Notes: a model not told the origin generated them from the sequence alone. A stretch of 64,000 nucleotides of DNA from a virus (IMGVR_UViG_3300036819_000087:32001-96000), one strand, 5' to 3'; counted from the stretch's first letter, positions 8,878 through 27,180 are shown. Made by a program: numbers and translations.

Positions 8878-9304
8878 GCCGTTGGGGAGCGTCCAAGCCG
8901 AGGAGCCGGGCCCGCCGCTCCGACACCCGGATCAGCCCGTTGACCGCCTGGATGACCGGGCCGTCGTCCTCGATCGGCGTCCCCGTGACCGGGTGCCTCG
9001 CGACCTTCCCCGACGCGCTCACCGAGTAATGCTTAGTCAGCAGAACCCGGTGCAGGACCCGGGTGAGTTCATCGAGGCGGTCCGCTTCGAGCGCGCGGAC
9101 CTCCTCGGCCGCGTCCCGGGCCACGTCGGCCATGGCCCGCTGGACCGCCTCATACGAGGTCGACACCGACTTGTGGCCAAGCTCGGTAGCGATCTGCGGG
9201 TAGGTCATGCCGCGGCGGCGGAGGTCGAGGGCGCGGGCGTCCTTCTCCCGGGTCGCGACGCTGCGGCGGCGCCCTCGGGTGCTGCCGGTATTTCTCATGC
9301 TCAT
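8771..9304 (-). CDS. terS: Terminase small subunit
   Basis: ALDLRRRGMTYPQIATELG HTH; ERRARLLGLDAP; directly upstream of terL. Confidence 0.8.
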   Translation of the reverse strand: MSMRNTGSTRGRRRSVATREKDARALDLRRRGMTYPQIATELGHKSVSTSYEAVQRAMADVARDAAEEVRALEADRLDELTRVLHRVLLTKHYSVSASGKVARHPVTGTPIEDDGPVIQAVNGLIRVSERRARLLGLDAPQRHEVRTIDAIDARLFQLADEVAGVGSGDAAPVPREA

Positions 9305-9326
9305 TGGTTTCGCCGAATTCCGAGGT

Positions 9327-9346
9327 CGTCAACGTTCCCGTTGACA
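9327..9346. promoter_or_regulatory. Palindromic operator CGTCAA-N8-TTGAC overlapping a -35 box
   Basis: CGTCAACGTTCCCGTTGACA; near-identical copies at 58073 and 58571. Confidence 0.65.
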
Positions 9347-9402
9347 GGAGGGGGTGGGGGGTGCAGTGTGGTGGTGTACCAACCGCAACCGAGGAGCAGA
9401 CG

Positions 9403-9657
9403 ATGAGCAGCGCGGACGGTTTCAACACCATGAAGGATGTCCTTGACCAGGCACGGAACGGTGACATGGTCACGGCGCTGGCGGCCGGTACCGTCGCGGT
9501 GGACGTGATGTCCTCGGCCCGCAGCGACACGGTCTACAACGACGCGGCGGCGGCGCTCGCGGCGGCGTTCCTCACGATCAAGGACACCCACCTCGCGTCG
9601 CACCCGCATCTGGCCCACGCGGTCGCGGACCATGCGAAGCGGATCGCCGCCCTGTAA
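9403..9657 (+). CDS. Hypothetical protein (moron-like, own promoter and terminator)
   Basis: TTGACA upstream, GCAACCGAGGAG before ATG, GC hairpin at about 9675-9703. Confidence 0.65.
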   Translation: MSSADGFNTMKDVLDQARNGDMVTALAAGTVAVDVMSSARSDTVYNDAAAALAAAFLTIKDTHLASHPHLAHAVADHAKRIAAL

Positions 9658-9706
9658 CCCCGGTTCCCGTTCTGCGGCCCGTCCCCCGACTGGGGGCGGG
9701 CCGTAG

Positions 9707-12554: not shown

Positions 12555-12962
12555 GCGGTTAAGCGTGGCCGGCCGCAAGAGGTGCCGCCAACCTGAACGG
12601 CCCCCGGCCCGCCGTGGCGTTCACCACAAGCGGAGCACGGGGGCCGCTACCAGGGCCGCCGGGGCCCTCCCCGGTGGAAACGGGGAGGGAACACCGGACC
12701 GGCCGGTACTACCCGGCACCCGGGGTCTCCAGTCCCAAGCACCGGGCCGGCCTGCCGGGCCCTCCCCCAGGGCAGACGGGGAGGGATCATAGGCGGGCCG
12801 TCTTAGCCGCGGCCTCTCGTAACTCGGCGGGTGCGGCGGCGTGCTTCGCGGCGGCTCATACCACGGCCACGCATCGTGCGGTAGTAGACGCGGCCGTCAG
12901 CACGGTCATCGCGGCGTGTCTGCCGATCACGGCGGTTCTTCCCGAACATGGGTTTCCTCCGT

Positions 12963-13484
12963 TTATTCTGCTGTGCTGTCGCCGGGATCGGCGGGCAGTT
13001 CGGGCCAGATGTGGCGTTCACCGCGGGGGCCGGGCGGGACCGGGCCATCACCCCACGTGAACGTCTGCCACGGGCCTGGGGTGGTGTCGGTGCGGAGCCT
13101 GTACCTGGTCGTGGTGGGGTCGTCGAACAGGTCACGGGCCGCGTCATCCGCGGCGGCGGTGAACTTCTCGAACCGCATGTCGTCGGCTGCGGCCAGGTCG
13201 AGCGGCGCGGCCCTGCGGGTCCAGACGGCGCGGACCCGGCCCTCGCCGCGGCGGTAGAACAGGACCCAGCGGCGGGGCGCCCACTGGACCTGCAACCCAT
13301 GCTTGCCGCCGTGTCCGGGGATTACCCCCCACTTGATGCGACGGTCGCGGTGGTCAAGGCGGCGCATCCGCCACGCCTCGTACAGGCCCGTGAAAGGGCC
13401 GGGGTGACGGGGTGCGACGTAACCGCGGTAGGTGACGCGCCACATTCCCATCGCGATCCGCTCGAATGTTATCGGCGATTTCAT
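12963..13484 (-). CDS. Hypothetical protein
   Basis: ATG preceded by ACAACCGAGGAG. Confidence 0.6.
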   Translation of the reverse strand: MKSPITFERIAMGMWRVTYRGYVAPRHPGPFTGLYEAWRMRRLDHRDRRIKWGVIPGHGGKHGLQVQWAPRRWVLFYRRGEGRVRAVWTRRAAPLDLAAADDMRFEKFTAAADDAARDLFDDPTTTRYRLRTDTTPGPWQTFTWGDGPVPPGPRGERHIWPELPADPGDSTAE

Positions 13485-13502
13485 TGGGTTCTCCTCGGTT
13501 GT

Positions 13503-13868
13503 TCAGAATAGCGGGTCCATTATGGCCGCCAATTCGGCGGCGCGGGTGGCTTTCGCGGTTTCGGCGTGGTGCTCTTTGTCGTAATGCAAATGGCAGCCTT
13601 GGCACATTGCGCGGAGAATTGACGCGCCCAGGACGTTTATGTCCCAGCAGGCCGGCTGGTGGTTGAGGTGGGCGGTGGTCAAGATGACCCGGTTGCCGGT
13701 GCCGTAGGCGGCGCCCTCGTGCTCGTTCGGGCAGCGGCCGGGGTGGGTGCCCCGGCCGCACTCCCCCACGCATTCGCAGCGGCCGGCGGCCCGGACGAAC
13801 CGCACCCAGTACGTGATTGCCGTCCAGTTCGGCGGGTACAGGTGGCGGTTCTCCGGGCGGATCGGCAC
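13503..13868 (-). CDS. HNH-like zinc-binding phage protein
   Basis: MPIRPENRHLYPPNW...GRCEC...LTTAHLNH...AMCQGCHLHYD. Confidence 0.75.
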   Translation of the reverse strand: MPIRPENRHLYPPNWTAITYWVRFVRAAGRCECVGECGRGTHPGRCPNEHEGAAYGTGNRVILTTAHLNHQPACWDINVLGASILRAMCQGCHLHYDKEHHAETAKATRAAELAAIMDPLF

Positions 13869-13871
13869 CGG

Positions 13872-14171
13872 TCAGCGGCCGTTCGTGCAGCGCCGCGGGC
13901 CGCTCATGATCTTCTTGCGCATGTCGTACAGGTAGCCGATGTAGCAGGTGGCGCCGAAGTCGATCACCCAGCAGACCCCCGCGCATTTCGAGCACACGCC
14001 GCGGTAGGCGGGCTGCCCTTTCCGTTTGGCCCACTTCATCTTGTGGCCGAGGCGGGTCAGGTCCTGGTGCTCGCGGACCTTCAGGCGGGTGCTGTTCCCG
14101 GTCGCGCCGACATCTTTGACAGCCTGCCGCGCCCATGTCCGCTGGACGCTTTCGTCGTCGCCGCGGGTCAT
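13872..14171 (-). CDS. Small basic GHxMxW-CxxC protein (paralog 1)
   Basis: GHKMKW...GVCSKC. Confidence 0.6.
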   Translation of the reverse strand: MTRGDDESVQRTWARQAVKDVGATGNSTRLKVREHQDLTRLGHKMKWAKRKGQPAYRGVCSKCAGVCWVIDFGATCYIGYLYDMRKKIMSGPRRCTNGR

Positions 14172-14638
14172 GGTTTCTCGGACCCGTCGAGCCAGCGGGT
14201 GTAGTCGCCGTCTTCCAGGGGGTTCTTGTCGATGTCGCGGTGGAGGAGATGCACGTTGTACCCGGTCCGGTCGAGGTCGCCGGCGGTCAGGATCGCGATC
14301 GACGGGGACCGGTGCCGGCCTGCTGTGCAGCCGACCGCGATGGTGACGGGGACACTGCTGCGGCGTTTCCGCCCGTACAGTTGGGCGGTCATGGTCCGGG
14401 CCATGCCGGCGAGGTCGGTGACCAGGTCGCGGACGCCGGGCGTGTACATGACCCGGTCCAGGATCTCCTGGTCGCGGGCCGTCAGGGCGCGGAGGGCGGG
14501 GTCGACGCCGGGGTCGTGGAACCGGTGCTGGACGTTGACGGTGATCTCCGCGTCCGCGGGGGGTGGGCCGTTCCGGTACCCGAACGAGACCAGGACGACG
14601 TGGGTGCTGTCGGGGACGAACCCGGTGGTGGTGATCAC
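14168..14638 (-). CDS. RapZ C-terminal-like domain protein
   Basis: SFGYRNGPPP...IAVGCTAGRHRS...HRDI. Confidence 0.8.
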   Translation of the reverse strand: MITTTGFVPDSTHVVLVSFGYRNGPPPADAEITVNVQHRFHDPGVDPALRALTARDQEILDRVMYTPGVRDLVTDLAGMARTMTAQLYGRKRRSSVPVTIAVGCTAGRHRSPSIAILTAGDLDRTGYNVHLLHRDIDKNPLEDGDYTRWLDGSEKP

Positions 14639-15039
14639 ACCGGCTCCTCGTCCTGCTGGCCTTCCAGCCAGCCGTTCTGGTCGGCGACCCACTCCGGGTA
14701 GGCGGGGCCGAGGAGGTCCCGGGCGACCTGGTCGGCGACGTAGTACAGGTGGAGGGGGCCGTGGTTCCCGCCGCCGGCTTCGGCCAGGTGGCCGAGGGCG
14801 CGGCCGACGCGGGCGATCAGCACGTCCGGGCCGGACTCAGCCCACCGGGTCTGCTGAACCAGGCGGACGTAGTCGAGGTACTGGGCGGTGAGGGCGAGCC
14901 GGTCGGCGACCAGCTCGGTGCGGGTCTCGGGCAGGGTGGCGCGGGCGGCCTGGTCCTGGATGTCGCGGGTGAGCCCTTCGAGGACCTCCCCGATCCGGGT
15001 CAGGTGCGGGAGCGCGGTCAGCGCGGGGGCGTCAGTCAT
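14635..15039 (-). CDS. Hypothetical protein
   Basis: ATG preceded by ACAACCGAGGGA. Confidence 0.6.
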   Translation of the reverse strand: MTDAPALTALPHLTRIGEVLEGLTRDIQDQAARATLPETRTELVADRLALTAQYLDYVRLVQQTRWAESGPDVLIARVGRALGHLAEAGGGNHGPLHLYYVADQVARDLLGPAYPEWVADQNGWLEGQQDEEPV

Positions 15040-15063
15040 GGTGTTTTCCCTCGGTTGTTGTGG

Positions 15064-15243
15064 TCACCGGGTGGTTCCGGTGTGAGCGTTGCGGCGTGCC
15101 TGGCGGATGGCGCGGCGGCCGTTCCGGCCCAGGGCCTTGCGGTGGGCACGCTCGGCTTTCCGGTCCAGCGGGCGGCGGCGGAAACGTGACTAGGCAAGGC
15201 CGGCGGCTAGCAGGGTGACCGCGGCGACGGCAGGCAGTGTCAT
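15064..15243 (-). pseudogene. Small membrane-anchored basic protein interrupted by in-frame TAG
   Basis: MTLPAVAAVTLLAAGLA*SRFRRRPLDRKAERAHRK...; perfect start motif upstream; TAG at 15190-15192. Confidence 0.55.
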
Positions 15244-15264
15244 GCTGGTGTCGCTCCTCGGTTG

Positions 15265-15933
15265 TTACGGGCGGGTAGGGGCCGGGTGGATGGTGACGAC
15301 GGCAGGGGAACCGACCGGCTCAGGTGCTCCGACAGGCGGTACTGCGGGCGGGCTGGCTGAACTGGTCACCCAGGAACCGCCGTTCTCCGCGCCCAGGACG
15401 ACGATCGCTTGCCAGGTGATGAGCCGCAGATCAGTCCCGGTGTGGATCTGGCCGCTGGCAGGGAACCACACGTAGTCGCCGGGGAGCGGGTTCATCCAGT
15501 CGTCGGACTGGTCACCGGCTCCGGTGAGCCATGGCTGGCAGGCGACCCTGCGTGTGATGCTGCCACACTCGGCCTGGACGGTCCGGCCGCTAGTAGTGAG
15601 GATTGCCAAGGTCAACGCCCCGCAGAGCGGTTTCTTGCCGCCGCGCTGGCGGCGGGGCATGGCGGTGGGGCAGTGCGCTTGGGTCGCGGCGGCGAACCCG
15701 AACTCGACGGGATCGGAGTCCAGGACCATTCCGGCGGTCATGCCAGGGTGGGGGCGGGTTGTGGGGTGGCTGTCCATGTAGTGGGTGGCCTCGGTGCGGC
15801 TCGACGTACCGGGCGGGCTCGACGTACCGGGCGGGGTGGCTGTCCATGCTTGGCGTGCGCAGGCGGTCAAGGTGCCGCCGATGGTGAGCGCAGCGGTGGC
15901 GGTAGTCAGCGCGATGACGGTTCGGGAGGTCAT
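15265..15933 (-). CDS. Putative secreted protein or lipoprotein
   Basis: Signal-like N-terminus ending LTAC (lipobox-like); start motif upstream. Confidence 0.55.
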   Translation of the reverse strand: MTSRTVIALTTATAALTIGGTLTACARQAWTATPPGTSSPPGTSSRTEATHYMDSHPTTRPHPGMTAGMVLDSDPVEFGFAAATQAHCPTAMPRRQRGGKKPLCGALTLAILTTSGRTVQAECGSITRRVACQPWLTGAGDQSDDWMNPLPGDYVWFPASGQIHTGTDLRLITWQAIVVLGAENGGSWVTSSASPPAVPPVGAPEPVGSPAVVTIHPAPTRP

Positions 15934-15971
15934 GCTGGTGGTGCTCCTCGGTTGTTTCGGGTGGTGGGGGG

Positions 15972-17207
15972 TCAGGAATTGACGGCGCGGAGGCCGCGGG
16001 CCCGCTTCACCTCCTCGATGCGGGTCTTGCCCCAGTTGCGGGAGCGGCCGGGGTGCAAGGCGGAGAGGTCCCGGTCGGTGAGTGTCTTCCGGCCGGGCGC
16101 GAGCGACGCGATGTACTCGTCGCGGGCGGCGACCGCGTCGGGGTCCATGGACATGCGGCCACGGCCCGACAGGGCCACATCCGGGTGGACCTGGTCCGGG
16201 CCAGTGGTCCGTTCTGGCTCATCTGGCCCATCATTGGGCCGGGTGTCTGGCCCATCGGCCGGCCCACCCGTGGCCCACGTTTCTGGCCCATCGGCCGGCC
16301 CCGTCTCTGGCCCATTGGGGGCCTCGTCGGGGCCGTGGGCCGGGGCCATGGTCAGGGCCATGAACGGGGCCACCGGGAGGCTGGCGGACAGGGCCACGCC
16401 GGGGGCCACCCCGGCCGGGAGCGGCGCGGCGGCGGTCAGCAGTTCATCGACCCGGCCGAGGGCACCGGTGATGCGGACACCGGTGTCGAGCTGCCACAGC
16501 AGATCCCCCGGGACGTGGTCACGCCAGCCGGTGCCGAACCGGGCGCGGAGCCGCTCGACGGCGGCGCGGCGGTCGATTTCCAGGCTGACCGCGGTCGTGT
16601 AGGAGGTGACTCCCCACATGATCATGCGGCGTTTGATGTACCAGGTGCCGGGCCGGTCGACCAGCCACCTCTGCCAGGGGATACGTTCGGCGCGGCGCCG
16701 TGACCGGTCAAGGGCGCGGGCGGCGCGGCGGGCCTCGTTCTGGCGGCGGAGCATCGCATGCCGGGCCGCCTCAACGAAGATCACCAGCAGGGCGGGCGCG
16801 AACATGCGGATGCCCATCCCCCGGTAGTCGGGCCAGCCGGCGGCGGCGTTCACGGCGACCACCCCGGCGGCGAACGTGAGGACCGCCCACCGGAGCCACC
16901 ACACCGTCCGTTCGGTGTAGACCAGGACCAGGTCCAGGCCCATCACCACGTACAGGCCACCCTGGATGCCGAGGGGGGCCAGCCACGCCAGCGCCACGTT
17001 CAGGTGGGCCGCGAGATGGGCCACCGTCTGGTAGTCGGCGGCGGTGGCGTAGGCCGCGATCGCCAGGCCACCGATGGCCAGCAGGACCCGCTGCCATGGG
17101 CCAAGAGCGGGCCGGCCTTCATGTTCTCCCATAGGGGCCATAGTGGCGTCTGGCCCAACAGGGGGCGGGGAAACACGCGGGGCGGTCATCAGGTTGGGTC
17201 CTTTCAC
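15972..17207 (-). CDS. DUF2637/Spd-like multi-pass membrane protein
   Basis: About four TM segments, RIPWQRWL...MIMWGVTSY, Pro-rich repeats, C-terminal HTH-like tail; architecture of Streptomyces plasmid spread proteins. Confidence 0.75.
   Translation of the reverse strand: MKGPNLMTAPRVSPPPVGPDATMAPMGEHEGRPALGPWQRVLLAIGGLAIAAYATAADYQTVAHLAAHLNVALAWLAPLGIQGGLYVVMGLDLVLVYTERTVWWLRWAVLTFAAGVVAVNAAAGWPDYRGMGIRMFAPALLVIFVEAARHAMLRRQNEARRAARALDRSRRRAERIPWQRWLVDRPGTWYIKRRMIMWGVTSYTTAVSLEIDRRAAVERLRARFGTGWRDHVPGDLLWQLDTGVRITGALGRVDELLTAAAPLPAGVAPGVALSASLPVAPFMALTMAPAHGPDEAPNGPETGPADGPETWATGGPADGPDTRPNDGPDEPERTTGPDQVHPDVALSGRGRMSMDPDAVAARDEYIASLAPGRKTLTDRDLSALHPGRSRNWGKTRIEEVKRARGLRAVNS
16211..16316. 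repeat. 12-bp-period degenerate repeat (CTGGCCCATC core)
   Basis: CTGGCCCAT at 16223, 16247, 16283 and 16307 with degenerate copies between. Confidence 0.75.
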
Positions 17208-17887
17208 TGGACCGGTGCGGGTTCATCGGCGAGGGCGAGGGAATCCTCGAACCACCAGCCGAACGTGGGCACGGCACCGCCGGCGGCCTGGAGCTCGTAC
17301 ACCTCGATGTAGCAGGCGGTGATGTCGTCGGGGAGCCGCAGCGCGCAGGAGTGGGCGTAGGCGACCCGGCGGATCGCGCCTTCAAGCAGGTTGATCGCCC
17401 GTTCGCATTCGGCGGCGACCCGGCGGGCTTTCTCCGCGGCCAGGGCGGCGTCTTGCATCCGCTTCTCCGCGTCGTCGTAGGCGGGTGATTCGGGGTAGGC
17501 GGCGGCCAGGTCGCGGCGGGCCCGTCTCCACGCATCGATCTGGCGGCGGAGTTCAGCGGCGGCTTCCGCCATGTCTTTGCGGGTTGCTGTTATCAGCTCT
17601 GCGCAGTGTTTCCCCTGCTGGTCGAGGAGGGTGGCGAGGTCGGCGGCGAAGTTGTCCAGTTCGGCGCGGGTCCAGTTGGGTTCTACGTCCCGGTCGTGGA
17701 GGAGGGCGGCGGCGTCGCCGGCGGTCAGGGCTAGGGCGGCGCCGGCGAGGGCGCCAAGGCCGAGGACGGCGACGTTGTTGCGGAGGGCGCGGGCGTACAT
17801 GGTGGCGGTGGTGTTACCGGCGTCGCGGATGCCTTCGATGAACCGGAAAGCTGCCGCCTCGTGCGGGCCGATCGGGTCGAACATCAC
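17204..17887 (-). CDS. Helical hypothetical protein in the transfer module
   Basis: GC3-rich Ala-rich ORF between the FtsK-like and DUF2637-like genes. Confidence 0.65.
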   Translation of the reverse strand: MMFDPIGPHEAAAFRFIEGIRDAGNTTATMYARALRNNVAVLGLGALAGAALALTAGDAAALLHDRDVEPNWTRAELDNFAADLATLLDQQGKHCAELITATRKDMAEAAAELRRQIDAWRRARRDLAAAYPESPAYDDAEKRMQDAALAAEKARRVAAECERAINLLEGAIRRVAYAHSCALRLPDDITACYIEVYELQAAGGAVPTFGWWFEDSLALADEPAPVQ

Positions 17888-17916
17888 CCCTCCCCTCCCC
17901 TACTGTCTGTGATCAC

Positions 17917-17948
17917 GATTGACCGGTCACTTGATTGACCGGTCACTT
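17917..17948. repeat. Perfect 16-bp tandem repeat GATTGACCGGTCACTT x2
   Basis: 17917-17932 and 17933-17948; internal palindrome TGACCGGTCA. Confidence 0.85.
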
Positions 17949-18025
17949 CTGGACCCCCGTATATACAGGGCAGGTGTCCGGTCACGCGGCGTGCGGGCGG
18001 GCGCGGGCGCGGTCACGCGGTTTCG

Positions 18026-20365
18026 TCACTGGCTGTGATCCCCGGGCTTGGGGAGGCCGGGCGGGACCGGGGCCTTCCAGACCCATTTCTGGGCCGCGCC
18101 GCCGGCCCCGTTGGTCCCGACCAGGTCCGCCAGCCTCAGTTTGTGCATGTAGGCGAGGGTGACCGCTTTGTTGATCTTGAGGATGGCGGCGAGTTCCCGA
18201 GCCGATTTACCCCCGCTGACCAGGGCGTTCACGATGACCACGAAACGATCTTGGGGGATTTCGTGCAGGTCGGCGACCTGCTGCCACTGGACGGCGCGCG
18301 CCTGCCGCATCTGTTCCTCGGTGACCTCGGGCCGGATCGTGGCCGGGTCGGGGGTGCTGTCGAGGACGCGGCGGACCTCGTCGGCTTTGGTGCCGAGGCC
18401 CTGGACCATCTCGTCCAGGCCGGGGACTTCTTCTCGCATCATGCGCTCCAGTTCGTCGAACGAGGTGCCGGCGGCGGGCCGGTCGAGGGTGGCCACGGCC
18501 GCACCGTCCCATTCGGGGGAGGGGCTGGCGTCAGCATTTGCTGACGGGGTGGGGGTGGGCTGGGTGGTGGGGGTGAACCGGTCCCACTGGCCGCGTGCCC
18601 AGCGGGCGAACACGTCCTCGCCGAGGAGCTGGTCGAGTTCGTCGCCGAGGAAGTCCCGCAGTTCCGGTTCGAGCTGCGGCTGGTGGCGGGCGCGGGCGTT
18701 GACCAGTTCGTCGATGTCCTCGGTGTCGCGGAGCTTCCAGGTGCGGCCCATCGTGGTGGCGGCGCCCATCTCGGGGACGAACCCCCACACGCCCTTGGCG
18801 GTGCCGCCGTAGGTGGTCATGTCGGGCATCCACGAGTTCTGGCCGAGGAGCAGCGCGGACTCGTTCGGGTTGGTGATGCGGCTCACGGCGAACGTGTCGA
18901 CCAGGGGCCGGATGTTGGCCCCGGAGGGGCCGCCCATCCAGTCGGCGGTGGCCCGCTGCCCGGCGGTGACCCAGGCGATGCCCTCGGACCGGTCCTTGCT
19001 GTACGCCTGGCCGAGGAGTTTCGCGACGGCGGGGAACTTCGCGGCCGCGTCGATCTCGTCGATGATCACCAGGATGAGGGGGGCTTTGCGGGTGGGCCGG
19101 TGGTCACGGTTCCCGCGTCGGGTGTCGCGGTGCTGGGACCGCCACCAGCGGATCTTCTGGAGCAGGCGGAGGATGCGGACCGCGCGGGTCCACTGGTCCG
19201 GGCCGATCGCGGTCAGGTGGCACGCTGGCGCCCAGTCGAGCAGCTCGGACGCCTTGTCCAGGTTGATGCCGATGGTGAGGACATCCCGGCAGGCGGTGCC
19301 CCGCTCGTAGATGCAGTTCATGAGGGTTGATTTGCCCGCGCCGCGGGTGCCGAGGAGGTAGGCGACCCGGGCACCGTCCTCGGTCCAGACCGGGAGGGTG
19401 AGGACCCGGCCGGTTTCGGGAGCCTGGCCGACGGGGAACGGGTCGTGGCAGGTGGCCTCGTTCAGGCCGGGCAGCTCGATCTCATGGTCGGCGACCAGCG
19501 CCGGGTGCTTGATCGGCCGTTTCCACGGGTTGCGGTACTGAATGGTGACCTGGACGCGGCCGGCGCGGGAGTTCGCCGGGACCGTAACCTGGACCTGGGC
19601 GGGGCGGAGCCCTTCCGCGCCGGCGATCGTTTCGGCGTAGTGGCCGGCGCGGGACCGGAAGTACGACGCTTTCTTGCCGGTGCCGTTCACGTCGAACAGC
19701 CACGCCTCCCCGACCCGGGTGTCCCAGTGGTTCAGCAGGAGCGCCCCGTGCATGTCCCAGCTTGCGGCGCGGTGCTGCCACGCGGTTTTCTCCGCCTGCC
19801 ACTGGCGGGCGTACACGGCGGAGGGGAGGTGGTGGACCCACCACCAGGCGACCGCGGTGGTCAGCGCCCACAGCATCGTCAGGGACGGGACACCGAACGG
19901 GCCGCCGAGCACGCCACCCGGCTGGCCTGCGGTCCAGGCGACCCATGCGCCGGTGATCAGGCCGCCGACGGCCAGGCGGCGGGCCCCGGCCATGTGGTTG
20001 CGGCGTTCCCCGGTCCGCTTGTCCTTGCGGCCCGCCGAGCCGGCCAGGAGCGTCACCGACTCGAACACCAGGGTGGCGACCACAATGTCATGGCCGGGGA
20101 GCCCGGTCACGTGCATGATCTCAGCGGCGGTCCACGCGACCGCGGCGGCCTTCCACACGCGGCGGGCCTCGCGGCCGGTGCTGGTGGGGGGGCGGCGGGT
20201 CAGCGTGTTGTCGTCGCTGCCACCCAGGTCCTCCTCGTCACCCCACTCATCCCCATCATCTGCCTCATCCCGGTCATTCGGCTGGTCTATCCGGTAGGGG
20301 GCGGTGGCATAGGGGTCACGGTCGTCGCTCCACTCGGCGGTGGCGTCCGGGTCGGGGTGGGTCAC
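18026..20365 (-). CDS. FtsK/SpoIIIE-family (TraB-like) DNA translocase
   Basis: N-terminal TM helices, GTRGAGKST Walker A, LVIIDEID Walker B, AGQRAT, C-terminal winged HTH (KSARELAAILKINK). Confidence 0.85.
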   Translation of the reverse strand: MTHPDPDATAEWSDDRDPYATAPYRIDQPNDRDEADDGDEWGDEEDLGGSDDNTLTRRPPTSTGREARRVWKAAAVAWTAAEIMHVTGLPGHDIVVATLVFESVTLLAGSAGRKDKRTGERRNHMAGARRLAVGGLITGAWVAWTAGQPGGVLGGPFGVPSLTMLWALTTAVAWWWVHHLPSAVYARQWQAEKTAWQHRAASWDMHGALLLNHWDTRVGEAWLFDVNGTGKKASYFRSRAGHYAETIAGAEGLRPAQVQVTVPANSRAGRVQVTIQYRNPWKRPIKHPALVADHEIELPGLNEATCHDPFPVGQAPETGRVLTLPVWTEDGARVAYLLGTRGAGKSTLMNCIYERGTACRDVLTIGINLDKASELLDWAPACHLTAIGPDQWTRAVRILRLLQKIRWWRSQHRDTRRGNRDHRPTRKAPLILVIIDEIDAAAKFPAVAKLLGQAYSKDRSEGIAWVTAGQRATADWMGGPSGANIRPLVDTFAVSRITNPNESALLLGQNSWMPDMTTYGGTAKGVWGFVPEMGAATTMGRTWKLRDTEDIDELVNARARHQPQLEPELRDFLGDELDQLLGEDVFARWARGQWDRFTPTTQPTPTPSANADASPSPEWDGAAVATLDRPAAGTSFDELERMMREEVPGLDEMVQGLGTKADEVRRVLDSTPDPATIRPEVTEEQMRQARAVQWQQVADLHEIPQDRFVVIVNALVSGGKSARELAAILKINKAVTLAYMHKLRLADLVGTNGAGGAAQKWVWKAPVPPGLPKPGDHSQ

Positions 20366-20415
20366 GGTCGTGATCCTCTCGGGGCAGGCGGGCGGGCAGG
20401 AGAAGGGAAGGGGGG

Positions 20416-21213
20416 TTAGGCGGCGGCGCCGTCGCCGAACCACTGGCGGGCGTTGTTCGGCAGCGGGGTGCCGTCCGCGACCGCGTTGCGGGTCGCGGCG
20501 TACTCGGCGACCATCCGCTGGTTATGCGCGGCGACCAGCAGGGAGGCGTCCATCGCGCTGTCGGCGATCTCGATCAGGCCGGCGATGATGGCCGGGGACA
20601 GGTTCCACACGGCGGTCAGGTTGTCGGTGTGGGCCAGGATCGCCTGGGAGAAGTGGAGGAGCCCCGCCGACCAGCCCCGGACCGTGGACAGTTCGCCGGC
20701 CTCGTTCTCCGGGACGAACCCGGCGATCGCGGTGGAGAGCTGGACCCACAGGGCGGGCACGTCCTGCTGGCCGATCACCGCCGGGTCCGGGGGGGCGGCG
20801 CGCAGGTCGTCGCGGAGGGACGGCACGTCCCGGACCGTGTCTGGGGTCGCGTCCGGGCCTGGGCCACCCGCAGCCGGGACGGGACGGACACGCTGGACCG
20901 GTGCGGTGACCGCCCCGTCCTGGTGGCCACGCCAGGCCGACTCACGGGCCTTCCTGATTCCCAGAGACACACCCCACCGGGCCCGCATGAGCAGCCAGCC
21001 GGACAGCCAGCACAGTTTGTCCCATGCCAGGGTGAGCATCAATCTGGGTGCTCTCCTGACGGCCAGTATCAGCACCTTCCAGTGGGACAGGTGCCCGATT
21101 CTGGAATCAGAACGGGATGCGTCCTCTTCCAGCACTTTGTACAGGTAGGCAACCGACCAGGAAAATCCGATCAGGAAAATCGGGAGGAACAGGACGAAAA
21201 AGAGGCTGAGCAT
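20416..21213 (-). CDS. Membrane-anchored hypothetical protein upstream of traB-like gene
   Basis: Hydrophobic N-terminus, helical C-terminus; AGAAAGGA RBS. Confidence 0.6.
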   Translation of the reverse strand: MLSLFFVLFLPIFLIGFSWSVAYLYKVLEEDASRSDSRIGHLSHWKVLILAVRRAPRLMLTLAWDKLCWLSGWLLMRARWGVSLGIRKARESAWRGHQDGAVTAPVQRVRPVPAAGGPGPDATPDTVRDVPSLRDDLRAAPPDPAVIGQQDVPALWVQLSTAIAGFVPENEAGELSTVRGWSAGLLHFSQAILAHTDNLTAVWNLSPAIIAGLIEIADSAMDASLLVAAHNQRMVAEYAATRNAVADGTPLPNNARQWFGDGAAA

Positions 21214-21228
21214 TTCCGGGTGTCCTTT

Positions 21229-21951
21229 CTAATACCAGCCGTGGATGTTTTCGTGGTCGAGCGCTTTGCAGGGGGTGCCGTACACGTCGTGGATGTCGGC
21301 GAGGCCCCACCGGATTTGGGTCGCGGGGTCGGCCCGGCCCCCGAGGTCGGCGGGCCGGCCAGCGACCGGGTACTTGTAGGCGGGGCGGGCCTGCGCGATC
21401 CCGAACGCGAACACGTAGGAGCCGGGCCCGTCCCCGCCGGCGTGGGTGACGCGGGTGTCGGCGGTGTCCGACCAGCCCGACTCGCGGGTCCACAGCTCGT
21501 TGAGGCAGCCGGCCTGGGTGCCGGTCCAGCCGTCCAGGCAGCCGGCGAGCCTGTCACCGAGGGCCTGGTTGCTGGCCGGGGTGCCGCCGCCGCCGGGGGC
21601 CGAGCACGACGGGGCAGGATGATGGACGGCGTGGATGACAGGCCGGACCACTGGCCGGACCACGGCCTTGGCCGCACCCGGATCCGCGCCAGCACCAGCG
21701 GCGGCGAACGCAGCGACAGCCAGGCCAGCGACCACCAGCGGGTGGGGGCCTCGTCGCTGGCCGAGACGGAGCGGCTTCTGGAACAGGGACGGGCGCGGCC
21801 CATGGAACCGGCGGGACCGGCGGGCCTGCCGCCGCGTCGGCGGCCGGTGGAAGTCGTACCCGTCCAGAGGCATGAGCTGGCCCCTACCGGCTCTCGCCGG
21901 AGCAGCGTTGGCGGCCGAACCAGCCCAGTTTGTAGGTCTCCGAACGGCCAC
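21229..21951 (-). CDS. Lytic transglycosylase-like protein
   Basis: CLNELWTRESGW...FGIAQA...TQIRWGL...YGTPC...HGWY; TM segment upstream. Confidence 0.85.
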   Translation of the reverse strand: MAVRRPTNWAGSAANAAPARAGRGQLMPLDGYDFHRPPTRRQARRSRRFHGPRPSLFQKPLRLGQRRGPHPLVVAGLAVAAFAAAGAGADPGAAKAVVRPVVRPVIHAVHHPAPSCSAPGGGGTPASNQALGDRLAGCLDGWTGTQAGCLNELWTRESGWSDTADTRVTHAGGDGPGSYVFAFGIAQARPAYKYPVAGRPADLGGRADPATQIRWGLADIHDVYGTPCKALDHENIHGWY

Positions 21952-22108
21952 CGGGATGCACGGTCACCGAGCCGAGGCAGCGGCCGCACTGGCCGTTGTA
22001 TGTCTGGATGTTGCGTCTAATCCTCCAGGTCATCTTGTGGCCTTTGCCGCGGAGACGGCGCGTCCATTCCTTTTTGGCCTCGTTGCGCTGTTCGATCTCG
22101 GTAGCCAT
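21884..22108 (-). CDS. Small basic GHxMxW-CxxC protein (paralog 2)
   Basis: LRGKGHKMTW...GQCGRC. Confidence 0.6.
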   Translation of the reverse strand: MATEIEQRNEAKKEWTRRLRGKGHKMTWRIRRNIQTYNGQCGRCLGSVTVHPGGRSETYKLGWFGRQRCSGESR

Positions 22109-22110
22109 GG

Positions 22111-22344
22111 TCAGCGGCCTCCCCGGATTCGGCGGCATCCAGGCCACTTCAGGTCGGTGGTGTCGACGCTGCCGCCGAGGTAGACGGTGATCTCGCCGGG
22201 GCAGTTCTTGCAGCGGCCGTGCCAGCGCCTGCTGCGGCCCCCGCTGTACTTCCACTGCATGACGTGGCCGTGTTTGCGGAGCTTGTCAGCCCAGTCGCGT
22301 TTAGCGGCGGTGCGCGCCTGCGCCGGGGTGATCTGGTTGCGCAT
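22111..22344 (-). CDS. Small basic GHxMxW-CxxC protein (paralog 3)
   Basis: LRKHGHVMQW...GRCKNC. Confidence 0.65.
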   Translation of the reverse strand: MRNQITPAQARTAAKRDWADKLRKHGHVMQWKYSGGRSRRWHGRCKNCPGEITVYLGGSVDTTDLKWPGCRRIRGGR

Positions 22345-22346
22345 GG

Positions 22347-22934
22347 TCAGTACCTCAGTCCGGGGATGCGGCCGTAGCCGACGATGGTGGTTTCGGTGGG
22401 GGACCAGGCGCGGACCTGGACGTACGCGCCGGTGTGGGGTGCCTCGACCACCCGGCCGCCACCGACATAGGTGACGACGTGGCCGGGGGACGGGTCGGGG
22501 TCGCCGGGCCATTGCTCGAAGATCAGGTCACCCGGTTCGAGCTGGCTGTAGGAGATGCGGGTGGTCCAGGCGTACTGGGCTTCGCTGGTCCGCGCCCCGG
22601 TGTCGATACCGATCTGGTGGAGCGCCCAGAAGTTCAGCCCGGAACAGTCGAACTCGCTGGGTCCGATCGCCCCGTACACGTACGGGTCGCCGGTCTTGGA
22701 TTCCTCCAGGTGGAGGAACTCGGTAGCGGTCGGCCCGCTGCCCCCGCCGGCGGCGGCCGCGGCGTGCGCGGGAGCCGCCGTGGCGGCGGGGTGCTTGGCC
22801 TGGTGGACAGCGGCGTGCGCGCCGGTCGAGGCCAGCGCGCACACCACCACCCCGGCCATCACCCCGGCCGCCCAGCCGGGGACACCGCTGGCGCGGCGCC
22901 CGTACCGGCGGCGGAGAGCATCGGGAGAGGTCAT
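22347..22934 (-). CDS. NlpC/P60 cell-wall peptidase
   Basis: GDPYVYGAIGPSEFDCSGL...PGDLIF...GHV...VEAPHTG; signal/TM segment. Confidence 0.92.
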   Translation of the reverse strand: MTSPDALRRRYGRRASGVPGWAAGVMAGVVVCALASTGAHAAVHQAKHPAATAAPAHAAAAAGGGSGPTATEFLHLEESKTGDPYVYGAIGPSEFDCSGLNFWALHQIGIDTGARTSEAQYAWTTRISYSQLEPGDLIFEQWPGDPDPSPGHVVTYVGGGRVVEAPHTGAYVQVRAWSPTETTIVGYGRIPGLRY

Positions 22935-22937
22935 CGG

Positions 22938-23252
22938 TTACCGGCTCACAGACCAGCCGCCAGCGGTCCGCTGGCTGCCCTTGTCCTTGCCCCGGCCGAA
23001 CGGGGCCACGAGGATCCCCGTGGCCGCCGCGACCGCGAAGAAGATCACGAATAGGACGACCCACGCGCCGATCATGTTGCTGGTCACGGAGGTGTGGGTG
23101 ACGGCGGCGTGGTGGGCGATCGCCGTCTTGTGCTTGTCGTTGATGTAGCCGACAGCGACCGACGCGGCGGCCACCGACGCGACGATCGCGCCGAACAGCC
23201 AGCGGCCGAACGTCAGCGGCTTGCTCTCGCGATTGCGGTTGTTGCTGCTCAA
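22938..23252 (-). CDS. Two-TM membrane protein
   Basis: Two hydrophobic segments; AAGGAG RBS. Confidence 0.6.
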   Translation of the reverse strand: MSSNNRNRESKPLTFGRWLFGAIVASVAAASVAVGYINDKHKTAIAHHAAVTHTSVTSNMIGAWVVLFVIFFAVAAATGILVAPFGRGKDKGSQRTAGGWSVSR

Positions 23253-23305
23253 CGGGGTGTCTCCTTTGGTGTGGCGTTGGCCCGGCCGGTTGGCCGGGCC
23301 ACGAT

Positions 23306-23671
23306 CTAGACCGCTTCGGCTTCTATGCCTTCGCGCTTGAGACGGCGGCGTTCCCGTTCGGACATGCCGCCCCAGATCCCGAACCGCTCATCGTTGGCGA
23401 GGGCGAATTCGAGGCAGTCGGCGCGGACCTCACAGGACCGGCACACCTTCTTGGCCTCCCTCGTCGACCCGCCCTTCTCGGGGTAGAAGGCTTCGGGGTC
23501 GGTTTGGGCGCACAGGGCCCGGTCCTGCCAGCCGAGTTCGTTGCCCTCGTCGGTCACTTCGCCGACGAAGCTCTCGTCGAGGGGCTCAACCGTGACCAGG
23601 GGGCCGGCGATGGGGCCGGCCGCGCCGGGGCTGGCCGCGAGGGTGGAGACGCGGACACGGGCGGCGCTCAT
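23306..23671 (-). CDS. whiB: WhiB-family Fe-S transcription factor (WhiB/WhiB2-like)
   Basis: WQDRALCAQTDPEAFYPEKGGSTREAKKVCRSCEVRADCL...GIWGGMSERERRRLKR. Confidence 0.95.
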   Translation of the reverse strand: MSAARVRVSTLAASPGAAGPIAGPLVTVEPLDESFVGEVTDEGNELGWQDRALCAQTDPEAFYPEKGGSTREAKKVCRSCEVRADCLEFALANDERFGIWGGMSERERRRLKREGIEAEAV

Positions 23672-24198
23672 GACTTGGCCGCCTTCCGCAGGTCGGCGAA
23701 GTTCGTGCACCGGACCTCGACCAGGGCGGTGAACTCGGACACGCTTCGCGCGTGGAGCGGACGGACCGGGCCGGTGTGCTCGACCACCAGGTCGGCCTTG
23801 TAGCCGTAGAACTGGCGGGCGCGGTACACAGCGTCCTGCTCGATATCGTCGAGGTCGCGGCCCTCGGCCTGGTCGGCGATGAACAGGTCCGGGCCGGGGC
23901 GGGGGGCGGGTTCCCGGTTGGCGCGCATGACGGCCAGCAGGTCGGGACGAGGCTGATCCGGGGCGGGCGGGGCGGGACAGCCGAACAGGTCAAGGAACGA
24001 GGGCATGAGGGTTCTCCAGGGAAGGAACAGGACGGCCGCGCCGAGGAACACGACCAGGGCGGCGGCGGCGGCCAGCCAGCACAGACCGGACTGGCAGGTC
24101 CAGCCGCCGGTAACAGCCAGGACGGCGACCACGGCGGCCGCGTCTCCGCACACGGCGGCACGCCGTCGTGTGCGGGCGCGGGGGGTGATCTCAGTCAC
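23668..24198 (-). CDS. Hypothetical protein, paralog of 24191-24556
   Basis: ARQFYG...TGPV...VEVRCTNF. Confidence 0.6.
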   Translation of the reverse strand: MTEITPRARTRRRAAVCGDAAAVVAVLAVTGGWTCQSGLCWLAAAAALVVFLGAAVLFLPWRTLMPSFLDLFGCPAPPAPDQPRPDLLAVMRANREPAPRPGPDLFIADQAEGRDLDDIEQDAVYRARQFYGYKADLVVEHTGPVRPLHARSVSEFTALVEVRCTNFADLRKAAKS

Positions 24199-24556
24199 GG
24201 GGGGCCTCCTCACGCCGGCCGCCGAAGTCGGCGGTGGCCGGGTCGGCCTCGTCGAGGAACTCGGCCAGTTCGGTCAGGAGCCGGACGGTGCCCTGCTCAG
24301 CAAGCTGGTCGCGGAACACGTCGAGGGCATCGGTGTAGTTGCCGCAGTGGACCGTCACGCGGGCGGTGACCGGGCCGGGCGCGCGGGGTGACAGCGACGC
24401 GGACAGGGGGCCGATGTAGGCGACCCGGAGGCGGGCGGCTGGCCCGTACACGCGCTGCGCATGGTCGAGGGCGTAGACGATCAGGCCGGGGATTCCGGAG
24501 CCGAAAGCGTCGAGGCTGAACCAGTCGGGGCTGTCGGGGCGGGGTGTCGTGGTCAC
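24191..24556 (-). CDS. Hypothetical protein, paralog of 23668-24198
   Basis: AQRVYG...IGPL...VTVHCGNY. Confidence 0.6.
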   Translation of the reverse strand: MTTTPRPDSPDWFSLDAFGSGIPGLIVYALDHAQRVYGPAARLRVAYIGPLSASLSPRAPGPVTARVTVHCGNYTDALDVFRDQLAEQGTVRLLTELAEFLDEADPATADFGGRREEAPRD

Positions 24557-25199
24557 GATGCCTCCTGCGCGAGAGCGCGGGCGGTGCGGGCGTCGGCCAG
24601 CAGGACGGCGGCGAGGCCGTGGTCTGGCTTGGGGCCAGAGATGGCGTCCTCGGCCTGTGCGGTGAACCGCGCGGCGAGCGCCTCGTACACCTCGGGGCCG
24701 GCATCGACGAGGATGCCGCCGGTGAACATGCCGGCGGCGGTGGCACCGGGGCCGATACGGAGGGGGCGCTCGTAGCGGCCGGCGAGGATCACGGCGCGGA
24801 GGCTGGCCCTGATCTCATCGGGGGTCCCGGCGGTGGCCGTCTCCTCGTCCACCCAGACGATGACCGGGGCGGGGGCGGTCATCCCGCGCTCCTCAGCGAC
24901 TGGGGGGGCCGACCGCAGCGTGCGCAGAAGATCCGGCGACGGTGGCGGATCAGGCTGTCCTCCGGGTGGCAGGGCGATGGTGCAAGTTCCCGGGAACTGG
25001 CGGAGGGGTTGCCGCCAGTCATGCCCCAGGCGGCTTGTGCACGGGCGAGGGCGGCTGCCCCCGCGCGCCGATTGGGCTTGACGAACCTGGTTGCTACAGT
25101 GGCCATGTCGTTTCCTTCCTGGGCGGATGGGGCGATGTGGTGAGCAGGGCGACGGCCGCGGAGTGAGGGCTCCGTGGCCGTTCGCGTTGTAGGAGCAGT

Positions 25200-25442
25200 T
25201 CATGCGGGCACCGCCGACAGGCCGGGGCGTGCGGGGCGGAGCCGGGTGCGGGCGATGTAGGCGTCATAGGACGCCACCGTCACGCGGAGGGTGCGGCCGA
25301 ACTGATTCGCGACCAGTTCACCGGAGTGGATCAGGCCACGGACCCAGTCCTCGTCCCGGTCCCACGCGGCCGCGATCGCCTGAACCGAATAGAACGGGTC
25401 AGGTGCGGGGGCCGCTTGCGTCTCGGCGGGGGATTCACTCAC
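25200..25442 (-). CDS. Excisionase-like HTH protein
   Basis: FYSVQAIAAAW...VRGLIHSGELVANQFGRTLRV. Confidence 0.8.
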   Translation of the reverse strand: MSESPAETQAAPAPDPFYSVQAIAAAWDRDEDWVRGLIHSGELVANQFGRTLRVTVASYDAYIARTRLRPARPGLSAVPA

Positions 25443-25534
25443 CCGTGGGACCACCTCTCTGGACCTGGCAGGCCCGGAAGGCACCTCGGTTCACCGCAAG
25501 TGCCCTCACGGACCCGCATAAGCCGGTTTGGTAA

Positions 25535-25567
25535 TGACAGTACAGACCGAACGGACCGAACTGTCAA
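25535..25567 (-). promoter_or_regulatory. Leftward promoter/operator of the transfer module
   Basis: TTGACA...TACTGT on minus strand (19-bp spacer); TGACAG/CTGTCA inverted repeat enclosing GACCGAA x2. Confidence 0.55.
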
Positions 25568-25633
25568 TGGGTTCGGGAAAGTCCGGGTTACGCTTTCCGG
25601 TGGCAACCGAGGCGACCAGGGAGGACCCGGGCA

Positions 25634-26383
25634 GTGACCGAGTGGGAGAAAATCGCCAGCGACCTGCGGCGGAAGATCGAGGCGGGGGAGTTCACCGACG
25701 GGCGTCTGCCGACGGAACGGGACCTCGCCGAGGAGTACGAGGTGGCGCGGCCCACCGTTCAGCGGGCGCTGGTCAGCCTCACCAACGACGGGCTCCTCGA
25801 ACCGGGGCAGGGCCGGCGGGGCCGGCGGATCCGCCGGAACCGGCCGCTGGTATTCCATGTGCTGCGGTCAGAGTCACCGGCGGCGATCGCCGAGCACGCG
25901 GCGGCCGGGGTTGACTCGTGGACGGCCGCCGCGACCGAACAGGACCGGGCCGGCGGGCAGCAGATCTCGGTGGCGATCGAGGAGGCCAGCGCCAGCATCG
26001 CCGCCCACCTCGGCATCGGCCAGGGCGGCGAGGTCACTGTCCGGCGCCGGGTCCGCACCCTCGATGGTGAACCGCACAACCTCGCCACCACCTACTACCC
26101 GCGGTCGCTGACCGGCGGGTCGGCGATCGAGGGGCCGGGGGATATCCCGCAGGGCACCATCGCGCTCCTGGGGGAGATGGGCTGGCCCCAGACCAGATCC
26201 CGCGACGAGATCGGCACCCGGATGCCGGCCCCGGCCGAACGGGAACAGCTTGAGGTGCCGCCCGGTGTCCCGGTGCTGGTCCACGTCCGTGTCGGGTACA
26301 GCGGGGACACCCCGGTCAAGGTGACAGTGACGATCTGGCCGGGGGACCGGGCCCGCCTGGTGTATGAGGACGGGGACGTGTGA
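25634..26383 (+). CDS. GntR (HutC/KorSA-like) regulator with UTRA domain
   Basis: IASDLRRKIEAGE...LPTERDLAEEYEVARPTVQRAL; UTRA-type C-terminus; divergent from transfer genes. Confidence 0.92.
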   Translation: MTEWEKIASDLRRKIEAGEFTDGRLPTERDLAEEYEVARPTVQRALVSLTNDGLLEPGQGRRGRRIRRNRPLVFHVLRSESPAAIAEHAAAGVDSWTAAATEQDRAGGQQISVAIEEASASIAAHLGIGQGGEVTVRRRVRTLDGEPHNLATTYYPRSLTGGSAIEGPGDIPQGTIALLGEMGWPQTRSRDEIGTRMPAPAEREQLEVPPGVPVLVHVRVGYSGDTPVKVTVTIWPGDRARLVYEDGDV

Positions 26384-26946
26384 TGCCGTTCATCCACAAA
26401 GCCGAACCGGGTCACCTGGCCGAGGTCCACGACGTGCTCCACTCAGCGGCTGAGGACCTTCACCGGCGGGGCATCGATCAGTGGCCGGACGGGTCACCGA
26501 ACTTCGAGCCGGCCGCGCTGGCCACCCAGATCCGGCGGGGCGAGTTCTGGATGGTCCGGGACCGGGCACTGCTGCCGGTCGCGGTGATCGCCGTGTCCTA
26601 CCGCGGCGACCCCGATTTCTGGACCCCCGCCGAGCTGGCCGCCCACGCCGTGTACCTGTCGAAAGCGGCGATCCTGCCGCGTCTGCGCGGGTTGGGGCTC
26701 GGCGCGTCCCTGTTCCGGTGGGCGGTCGACCTGGGATGGCGGGAAGGCACCGACGTGGTCCGCCTCGACGCCTGGTCAGCGAACAAGCAGCTCCACGGCT
26801 ACTACCAGGCGCGGGGGTGGCGGTTCATCCGCAACGACCCTCCGGAAGGACGCCGGTCCGGGGCCCTGTTCGATCGGCCCGCGGTCCCGGACCCGGACGC
26901 GCGGCGCATGTTCCGGCGGGTGCCGCCGCCGGCGATGGCCCTCTAG
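26380..26946 (+). CDS. GNAT acetyltransferase
   Basis: RGLGLG motif; VRLDAWSANKQLHGYYQARGW. Confidence 0.88.
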   Translation: MMPFIHKAEPGHLAEVHDVLHSAAEDLHRRGIDQWPDGSPNFEPAALATQIRRGEFWMVRDRALLPVAVIAVSYRGDPDFWTPAELAAHAVYLSKAAILPRLRGLGLGASLFRWAVDLGWREGTDVVRLDAWSANKQLHGYYQARGWRFIRNDPPEGRRSGALFDRPAVPDPDARRMFRRVPPPAMAL

Positions 26947-26967
26947 CTGGACACGCCCACCTGGCCG

Positions 26968-27180
26968 ATGATGGCCGGTATGGGTGTCTTGCTGCTGATC
27001 GGGGCCGTGTTCGGTGTGCTAGCCGGGTGGCGGTTCAAAACCACCCACTATGCGTGGTTCGAGTGGCGGAAAACGGTCAACGCGGTGCCGATCCTGCGGA
27101 AGATCTTCTACGGGTCGGTGCGGGCTGTCGCCGGGTGGGCGGTCGCCGCCCTGATCCTGGTCATCGTCGCCGTGCACTGA
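26968..27180 (+). CDS. Small two-TM membrane protein
   Basis: Hydrophobic termini. Confidence 0.55.
   Translation: MMAGMGVLLLIGAVFGVLAGWRFKTTHYAWFEWRKTVNAVPILRKIFYGSVRAVAGWAVAALILVIVAVH

Follow-up and report, generated by a model that had tools for sequence, protein, structure and literature searches.

A putative TraB/Spd-type DNA transfer module in a pZL12-type actinomycete phage and its recurrence among unrelated tailed phages

The closest described relatives of the locus reported here are conjugative plasmids and plasmid-phages of Streptomyces. PMC4447253 describes TraB of plasmid pSVH1 as an FtsK-like translocase that forms a kil-kor pair with the GntR-type regulator TraR, the clt of Streptomyces plasmids as direct 8-bp repeats read by TraB, and SpdB2 as a membrane protein of four helices that forms pores and is required for spreading within the mycelium; there, plasmid TraB and Spd proteins serve both primary transfer and spreading, and SpdB2 homologues on actinophages are suggested to assist the spreading of phage DNA. 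Both a virion cycle and conjugal transfer have been reported for the plasmid-phages pZL12 (phage ZL12, GQ919031, 90 kb; Zhong et al. 2010; conjugal transfer, PMC3583192) and pFP4 (Chen et al. 2012; conjugation with virion production, PMC4170104). Here we describe a locus in the virus record IMGVR_UViG_3300036819_000087 (107,282 bp), of which bases 32001-96000 form the window, the whole 64,000-nucleotide stretch that was analysed; coordinates are those of the window, and features lie on the minus strand unless marked. With moderate confidence, we read the single co-oriented gene run extending from ~25.5 kb down to the packaging genes (Table 1) as a TraB/Spd-type module for transfer of double-stranded DNA, a long-standing, built-in part of a temperate pZL12-type tailed phage that would let the replicon pass between or within hyphae independently of virions.

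This reading draws on the FtsK-motor fold of the module's ATPase, on its profile matches to pZL12.71c and to TraB of plasmid pFRL2, and on its winged helix. It also draws on the homology of a DUF2637 gene to a traB neighbour, on a divergent GntR gene as in TraR/traB pairs and in pZL12, on a NUDIX gene beside the GntR gene in relatives, and on candidate clt arrays, a core that recurs in 16 loci and the published plasmid-phages. Like the TraB/Spd systems of pSVH1, pIJ101, pSAM2 and pFRL2, the locus has an FtsK-like ATPase with a predicted membrane anchor and a C-terminal winged helix, an adjoining DUF2637 gene, a GntR regulator, 8-bp direct-repeat arrays and several small membrane proteins. Unlike them, its ATPase fails the plasmid TraB model NF041214, its carrier is a tailed phage, and no Rep, Int or Xis gene lies at the module edges. 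Additionally, the transfer and spread genes of pSVH1 named in the accessible sections of PMC4447253 include no dedicated secreted NlpC/P60 protein or transglycosylase, unlike the window.

The ATPase has visible Walker A and Walker B motifs. An alignment-based AlphaFold2 model (predicted local distance difference test score, 72) comprises five long N-terminal helices, read from their hydrophobicity as a membrane domain, an FtsK-like core and a C-terminal winged helix, whose ArsR-like character is supported by profile matches. Foldseek ranks the FtsK motor first (E ~1e-13), then the conjugation coupling protein TcpA, followed by EccC/EssC and HerA. On this model the protein follows the TraB-type plan, with a motor preceded by a putative membrane part and followed by a winged helix; it may form a hexamer and read a clt. 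When a profile of 70 family sequences was compared with three reference proteins (hhalign), it matched FtsK-like pZL12.71c of the plasmid-phage (probability 98.9%, E 3.3e-17, 336 columns), pFRL2 TraB (probability 97.6%, E 3.9e-12, 351 columns, extending past the P-loop core) and the Escherichia coli FtsK motor (probability 97.9%, E 5.3e-13, 202 columns, in the RecA-like core only); the two mobile-element translocases gave the longer alignments, and the best score belongs to one of them. The family is not a rare one: a profile search yielded 1565 representative clusters at E <= 0.001, of which 201 also pass E <= 1e-30, and one close homologue, 88% identical, lies on a 10-kb contig. Searches of Pfam, PHROGs, NCBIfam and PADLOC gave P-loop noise only, phmmer against PDB gave marginal matches only, and tblastn found no match in 72,556 plasmids or in 50,697 phage records, a collection that includes actinophage VWB. 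Judged by its sequence, the ATPase is a distinct branch of the FtsK/TraB superfamily.

Several homologues of the ATPase are unusually built. Among P0031, P0040, P0043, P0076, P0084, P0090 and G007:C243:9748-12819, several are 1074-1281 residues long and matched the profile in two to three pieces. In the long homologues the break falls at profile position 271/272, where the motor core begins in the FtsK alignment, ~20 positions before Walker A, and P0031 carries PF14528 (LAGLIDADG); these look like intein insertions in the translocase.

Next to the ATPase, the DUF2637 protein shares 31% identity over 230 residues (E 3e-24) with the product of the gene directly downstream of traB in pFRL2, a Streptomyces linear plasmid reached through a 120-nt DNA match and annotated with traB followed by a DUF2637 gene. 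By position and homology it is SpdB2-like. Actinophages phiC31 and VWB carry SpdB2 homologues, and among 50,697 GenBank phage records VWB was the only match to the DUF2637 protein (gp24, E 1e-9). Unlike the window, the 14.5 kb around VWB gp24 contain no gene annotated as an ATPase, wall hydrolase or GntR regulator.

The DUF2637 gene also carries a candidate DNA target. When the complete 107-kb genome was scanned for exact 8-mers with four or more copies in a 200-nt span, only two clusters emerged, one of them the TGGGCCAG array in the 3' part of this gene. The top 8-mer array of the locus lies in the DUF2637 3' half in L007, L010, L013, L014 and L015, the motif differing from one to the next; in L005 the arrays at the corresponding position are weaker, and the pFRL2 DUF2637 gene beside traB holds ~10 copies of GTGGTCCC. 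The strongest array falls in the 3' half of the DUF2637 gene in six of the 11 sources having that gene. As 8-mer clusters occur in these genomes at a background of ~1 per 35-40 kb, six of 11 in a ~600-nt target is far beyond chance (~1e-7, a rough estimate by hand). Codon phase is not kept by the exact copies of L007, L013, L015 and pFRL2, and the window array has degenerate copies in a second reading frame and exact copies that use the rare codons GAT-GGG-CCA, which suggests selection on DNA rather than a peptide repeat. Such element-specific arrays of 8-bp direct repeats, which occupy the 3' half of the gene for DUF2637 and have a counterpart beside traB in pFRL2, are new in this analysis, and we suggest them as candidate clt or translocase recognition sites. 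The motif GACCCGGA, putatively the pSVH1 TraB recognition motif, yielded unrelated papers only in a literature search and was not used as evidence. Three relatives have four copies of an element-specific 8-mer in intergenic DNA immediately 3' of the ATPase stop codon (L008:5359-5442, L010:2323-2382 and L012:12155-12202), a possible second position for the recognition site.

From the gene content, fold, homology, synteny and repeat position we infer DNA binding, translocation, regulation and transfer along the following lines. The GntR-UTRA repressor would hold the leftward operon off in kil-kor style; upon derepression the membrane-anchored, FtsK-fold ATPase would form a ring, its C-terminal winged helix would bind the 8-bp repeat array in the DUF2637 gene, and the motor would drive the replicon, double-stranded and unprocessed, through the envelope of the hypha or through septal cross-walls. 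The SpdB2-like pore protein, F2 and F3 would assist, and the NlpC/P60 and transglycosylase proteins would open the peptidoglycan. The element could then spread without virions, between mycelia by conjugation or within a mycelium by spreading.

Several observations weigh against this reading. The ATPase has no match (E <= 0.01) to the Pfam model PF01580 (FtsK_SpoIIIE) or to NF041214 (plasmid_TraB), for which pFRL2 TraB scores E 6.5e-93, and its profile matches the FtsK motor as well as TraB, so sequence alone cannot place it among conjugative translocases. The four exact repeats of the window are in codon phase and encode DGPE/D repeats in a Pro/Gly-rich region, and the array could be a by-product of a repetitive peptide tail. 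The host may not be mycelial. Finally, ParA was not found by tblastn, and no replication gene was recognisable among the proteins scanned, a subset of those encoded by the open reading frames (ORFs), so that a plasmid state is putative. The earlier note had called the protein a TraB-like FtsK ATPase with membrane, motor and winged-helix parts; the FtsK fold, the winged helix and the link to pFRL2 TraB stood, but the TraB and FtsK family hidden Markov models (HMMs) failed to recognise it, and by profile E-value it was no closer to TraB than to FtsK.

This ambiguity bears on the main rival, a purely intramycelial or segregational role in which the FtsK-like pump would, for example, act at sporulation or vegetative septa to clear or segregate the replicon, or help infecting phage DNA to pass from one hyphal compartment to the next, without reaching other strains. 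The ATPase resembles chromosomal FtsK/SpoIIIE in its motor fold, its profile match and its plan of membrane domain, motor and winged helix; it differs in its want of PF01580 and in lying on mobile elements beside Spd-like and hydrolase genes, not in a cell-division locus. A ParB is encoded on the contig and another beside the module in a chromosomal island described below, 125-kb phages with terminal repeats also retain the module, and the role suggested for actinophage SpdB2 homologues in PMC4447253 is the spreading of phage DNA. On the other side, plasmid TraB and Spd proteins perform both primary transfer and spreading in the same source, pZL12, which of the characterised elements is the nearest relative, has been reported to move by conjugation (PMC3583192), and secreted wall hydrolases fit the crossing of two envelopes. 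We regard an exclusively intramycelial function as rather unlikely, though the most serious competitor. The ParB_N and HTH_ParB protein of the genome is encoded outside the window (G000:C1:8576-9364, minus strand), has no detectable ParA partner on the contig and shares 41% identity with the ParB/KorB protein that accompanies the module in that island (G006).

Transfer between hyphae has a published precedent in pZL12, which shares with the window genome the character of a tailed phage of ~90-107 kb and ~70% guanine plus cytosine (GC). In pZL12 a GntR-UTRA gene diverges from a run with a NUDIX gene, membrane proteins and the FtsK-like gene.71c, after which follow, on the same strand, an F10 homologue (.68c), the terminase (.67c) and structural genes, among them.66c, a probable portal by position. 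The window has a homologue of pZL12.71c in the same position relative to the GntR and terminase genes. The two ATPases are alike in being FtsK-like proteins of ~725-800 residues that Pfam does not see (pZL12.71c also has no PF01580 match). The genomes share TerL, F10, GntR, a tyrosine recombinase and an EndoVII-like gene at 28-39% identity, the GntR proteins (pZL12.80) at 28%. The recombinase and the EndoVII-like gene form a second conserved gene pair: at 54292-55970 (minus strand) the tyrosine recombinase is 32% identical to pZL12.36c and the adjacent 224-residue protein 39% identical to EndoVII-like pZL12.35c.

The differences from pZL12 are also considerable. The window ATPase is only ~22% identical to.71c and was missed by tblastn; structural genes are largely unrelated; and pZL12 has ParA/ParB and a NUDIX gene, whereas the window genome has ParB and ParA was not found. 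Ten proteins scanned in the pZL12 module contained no DUF2637, NlpC/P60 or transglycosylase domain, and pZL12.73c is not detectably related to the DUF2637 protein; the window module goes beyond pZL12 in carrying WhiB, an SpdB2-like protein and two secreted hydrolases. A Streptomyces plasmid with a related terminase, pS1D4-14.2, has no annotated tra gene in its first 50 kb. The earlier inference of an element that may be passed on by conjugation as well as in virions is supported and has a strong published precedent, but the concept is not new, having already been reported for pZL12 and pFP4. What differs here is the remote ATPase, the added SpdB2-like, hydrolase and WhiB genes, and the spread of the cassette over unrelated, uncultured phages.

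To follow the module across elements, we compared 16 related loci carrying relatives of the ATPase, on six contigs from Actinomycetota metagenome-assembled genomes (MAGs) and ten IMG/VR contigs, clustering all ORFs; gene-cluster counts refer to 17 sources. A syntenic core of GntR (usually divergent), WhiB, NlpC/P60, sometimes the transglycosylase, F2, the ATPase, F3 and DUF2637 recurs in these 16 loci, including phages of three portal types. Phages G001 (125 kb, terminal repeats, Mu-type portal) and G003 (HK97-type portal) and the provirus G004 (HK97-type portal with an S78 prohead protease) have almost nothing in common with the window genome beyond the module, and none of the module-bearing phages G001 to G005 carries a homologue of the window TerL. 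In L007, L010 and L016 a large terminase, of an unrelated family, follows the module after a few kb, and the order GntR, module, F10, terminase is common to pZL12 and these three loci. Relatives also carry a NUDIX gene adjoining the GntR gene, like pZL12. In one MAG (G006), the module occupies a ~17-kb island of an 837-kb contig with a ParB/KorB gene inside, flanked on one side by a Cas3-HD gene with a repeat array and on the other by a sigma-factor gene; no phage structural gene was found within 100 kb by tblastn with the proteins of four module-bearing phages or by Pfam searches of ten island and flank ORFs. This synteny across unrelated carriers shows that the module is a self-contained cassette long associated with tailed phages, not a recent insertion or an assembly artefact. 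The repeat array, which abuts the module beside Cas3-HD (L002:17733-18902; G006:C22, ~290.9-292.0 kb) and has a 61-nt period, is probably a type I clustered regularly interspaced short palindromic repeat (CRISPR) array.

The same comparison bears on whether the module could be an independent actinomycete integrative and conjugative element (AICE) recently inserted in the phage, or a chimeric assembly. The core module also occurs outside phages, and carrier phages have almost no other genes in common, so that the module behaves as a cassette. Against this, no tRNA gene and no convincing direct repeats were found at its flanks, domain scans detected no integrase or replication domain among its genes, and the only recombinase (54930-55970) lies 30 kb away; the module has neither an integrase or excisionase and replication gene of its own nor bounding att sites, as an AICE would. 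GC is even across the window (0.69-0.72), the contig closes on itself, and the gene order recurs in pZL12, L007, L010 and L016. We consider a recent insertion or chimera highly improbable. The earlier note had found no AICE replication gene, integrase or att repeats at the edges, and our repeat, tRNA and domain searches agree; flanking att repeats, which it had named beforehand as evidence that would overturn a built-in module, were sought with the result given above, and its view that the module is built in is upheld by the edges and by the shared placement ahead of the terminase.

The carrier itself is a ~107-kb circular tailed phage of a high-GC actinomycete. The final ~120 nt of the record repeat its nt 16-135, so the assembly closes as a circle. 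Genes were called by third-position GC. A structural and packaging set is present (TerL, portal, a MuF-like head protein and minor tail proteins), along with RecT, two DNA methylases, the tyrosine recombinase and XRE regulators. Domain searches confirmed nearly every item of the co-oriented run, divergent from GntR-UTRA and ahead of the methylase, terminase and portal genes, that had been described beforehand. A search for close terminase relatives, meant to reveal phages with or without the module, reached at best 55% identity, on short fragments.

Table 1. Features of the module and its surroundings in the window (family labels in brackets)
Feature	Position	Strand	Evidence or remark
Portal	3-932 and beyond	-	tailed-phage hallmark
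Large terminase, TerL	7309-8877	-	hundreds of phage homologues; pZL12.67c homologue
F10 protein, 177 aa	8771-9304	-	homologue is pZL12.68c
DNA methylase	9707-11383	-	packaging region directly downstream of module (7309-11383)
Genome-specific genes between DUF2637 and methylase	12963-15933	-	four carry the ACAACCGAGGAG start motif
121-aa Cys/His-rich ORF	13503-13868	-	HNH or zinc-finger-like by eye; no Pfam match
RapZ C-terminal-domain protein (accessory)	14168-14692	-	PF22740 E 2.2e-24; also near module in L015
DUF2637 membrane protein (F4)	15972-17207	-	PF10935 E 1.3e-8
Array of seven same-strand TGGGCCAG-like 8-mers, four exact	16214-16314	-	3' part of DUF2637 gene
F3, 227 aa, one hydrophobic segment and long helices	17204-17887	-	immediately downstream of ATPase; in 11/17 sources
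FtsK-fold DNA-translocase-like ATPase (F0)	18026-20443	-	805 aa; database start 20365 gives 779 aa
F2, 265 aa, hydrophobic N-terminus	20416-21213	-	immediately upstream of ATPase; in 12/17 sources
Secreted transglycosylase-like protein (F8)	21229-21951	-	phrog_12661 E 4.4e-15; NF052397 E 5.3e-15
Secreted NlpC/P60 peptidoglycan endopeptidase (F1)	22347-22934	-	PF00877 E 4.6e-16
104-aa protein, two hydrophobic segments	22938-23252	-	translation; membrane-family matches sub-threshold only
WhiB-family regulator (F6)	23306-23710	-	PF02467 E 1.5e-26
94-aa protein, first gene of leftward run	25200-25484	-	HTH_17 (Xis/MerR-like) PF12728 E 0.0027, below curated cut-off
Divergent intergenic region	25485-25633		149 nt; palindrome TGACAGT-N18-ACTGTCA at 25535-25566
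GntR-UTRA (HutC-type) regulator (F5)	25634-26383	+	PF00392 E 4.5e-13; PF07702 E 1.8e-23

The wall hydrolases raise another alternative, a phage function unrelated to DNA movement, such as a lysis cassette made up of the membrane protein, NlpC/P60 and transglycosylase genes, superinfection exclusion, or defence or anti-defence by a P-loop ATPase. Minor tail proteins and lysins of actinophages can contain NlpC/P60 and transglycosylase domains (phrog_329, phrog_400), a small membrane protein gene precedes the peptidase gene, and the ATPase has a weak PADLOC mad8 P-loop match. Both hydrolases, however, have their own export signals: the NlpC/P60 protein begins with a signal-peptide-like RR...AHA sequence, and the transglycosylase-like protein has a hydrophobic signal or anchor sequence. 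The NlpC/P60 gene is present in 13 of the 17 sources, and the hydrolases stay linked to the ATPase even in the chromosomal island without detected phage structural genes. No PADLOC family matches beyond a 46-residue P-loop stretch, and both the homology of the DUF2637 protein and the neighbouring GntR and NUDIX genes speak for transfer genes. We consider a lysis or defence function improbable. The 104-residue protein is likely a membrane protein. F2 has no family match in Pfam, PHROGs or NCBIfam, and families F14 and F7 have no PDB matches.

At its regulatory end, the module faces the divergent GntR-UTRA gene, conserved and mostly divergent in ten of the 17 sources and a candidate kil-kor repressor. 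The palindrome in the intergenic region between them is a candidate operator. WhiB clustered in eight of the 17 sources, and tblastn places WhiB at the same position in nine related loci. The proposed linkage of a GntR-type regulator with spd genes holds, given the divergent GntR-UTRA gene and the homology of the DUF2637 gene to the traB-adjacent gene of pFRL2, with a regulatory role that is putative; the Xis-like helix-turn-helix protein proposed beside it amounts to the sub-threshold HTH_17 match of Table 1.

Downstream of DUF2637 lie accessory genes that are largely specific to this genome. Megablast of the 14-kb stretch gave only a 48-nt WhiB match and the 120-nt Streptomyces plasmid match, which is the sole near-DNA match of the stretch to any plasmid. 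We rejected an RNA as its source, as it corresponds to the conserved Cys/His-rich ORF, whose protein is 63% identical to that of an unannotated pFRL2 ORF and whose DNA is, over 120 nt, 84% identical to pFRL2 and 81% to a Streptomyces canus plasmid.

The window has 16 copies of the motif CAACCGAGG where 0.92 would be expected, a ~17-fold excess over chance. ACAACCGAGGAG, an extended ribosome-binding context 4-10 nt before ATG or GTG in both arms, occurs 18 times in the whole genome, and start-motif sites in the window include 5042, 5628, 29761, 45147, 46393 and 54267. ACAACCGAGGAG has 0-2 copies per relative, hardly occurring in the related phages, in pFRL2 or in the MAG segment, and it may mark a co-regulated gene class. 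Four start-motif copies had been placed inside the module at 13491, 15049, 15254 and 15944; all four are present, three of them 2 nt from those positions (CAACCGAGG at 13493, 15049, 15256 and 15946). They precede small, non-conserved genes at 13.4-16 kb, downstream of DUF2637, and none precedes a core gene. We therefore rejected CAACCGAGG as a sign that the core module has been assimilated: a motif that does not single out the conserved core carries little weight on that point.

Taken more broadly, these comparisons allow a bolder proposal that we advance only tentatively. The Pfam-invisible FtsK/TraB branch (1565 clusters), the SpdB2-like protein, F2 and F3 and the secreted hydrolases may together form a portable transfer cassette, acquired repeatedly by unrelated Actinomycetota tailed phages and kept upstream of the terminase, with each element carrying its own 8-bp array in the spdB2-like gene; virion-independent mycelial spread would then be common and overlooked. 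Because the ATPase family is not recognised by standard HMM libraries, routine annotation misses the module. The previous basis for phages of this kind was two cultured Streptomyces plasmid-phages, which is now extended to uncultured phages of at least three portal types and to a chromosomal island without detected phage genes. The repeat arrays in the spdB2-like gene offer a concrete candidate DNA-binding target. Conjugating phages blur the boundary between virus and plasmid: a phage moving as naked double-stranded DNA would escape receptor-based host range and adsorption resistance, and it could mobilise host genes in antibiotic-producing actinomycetes.

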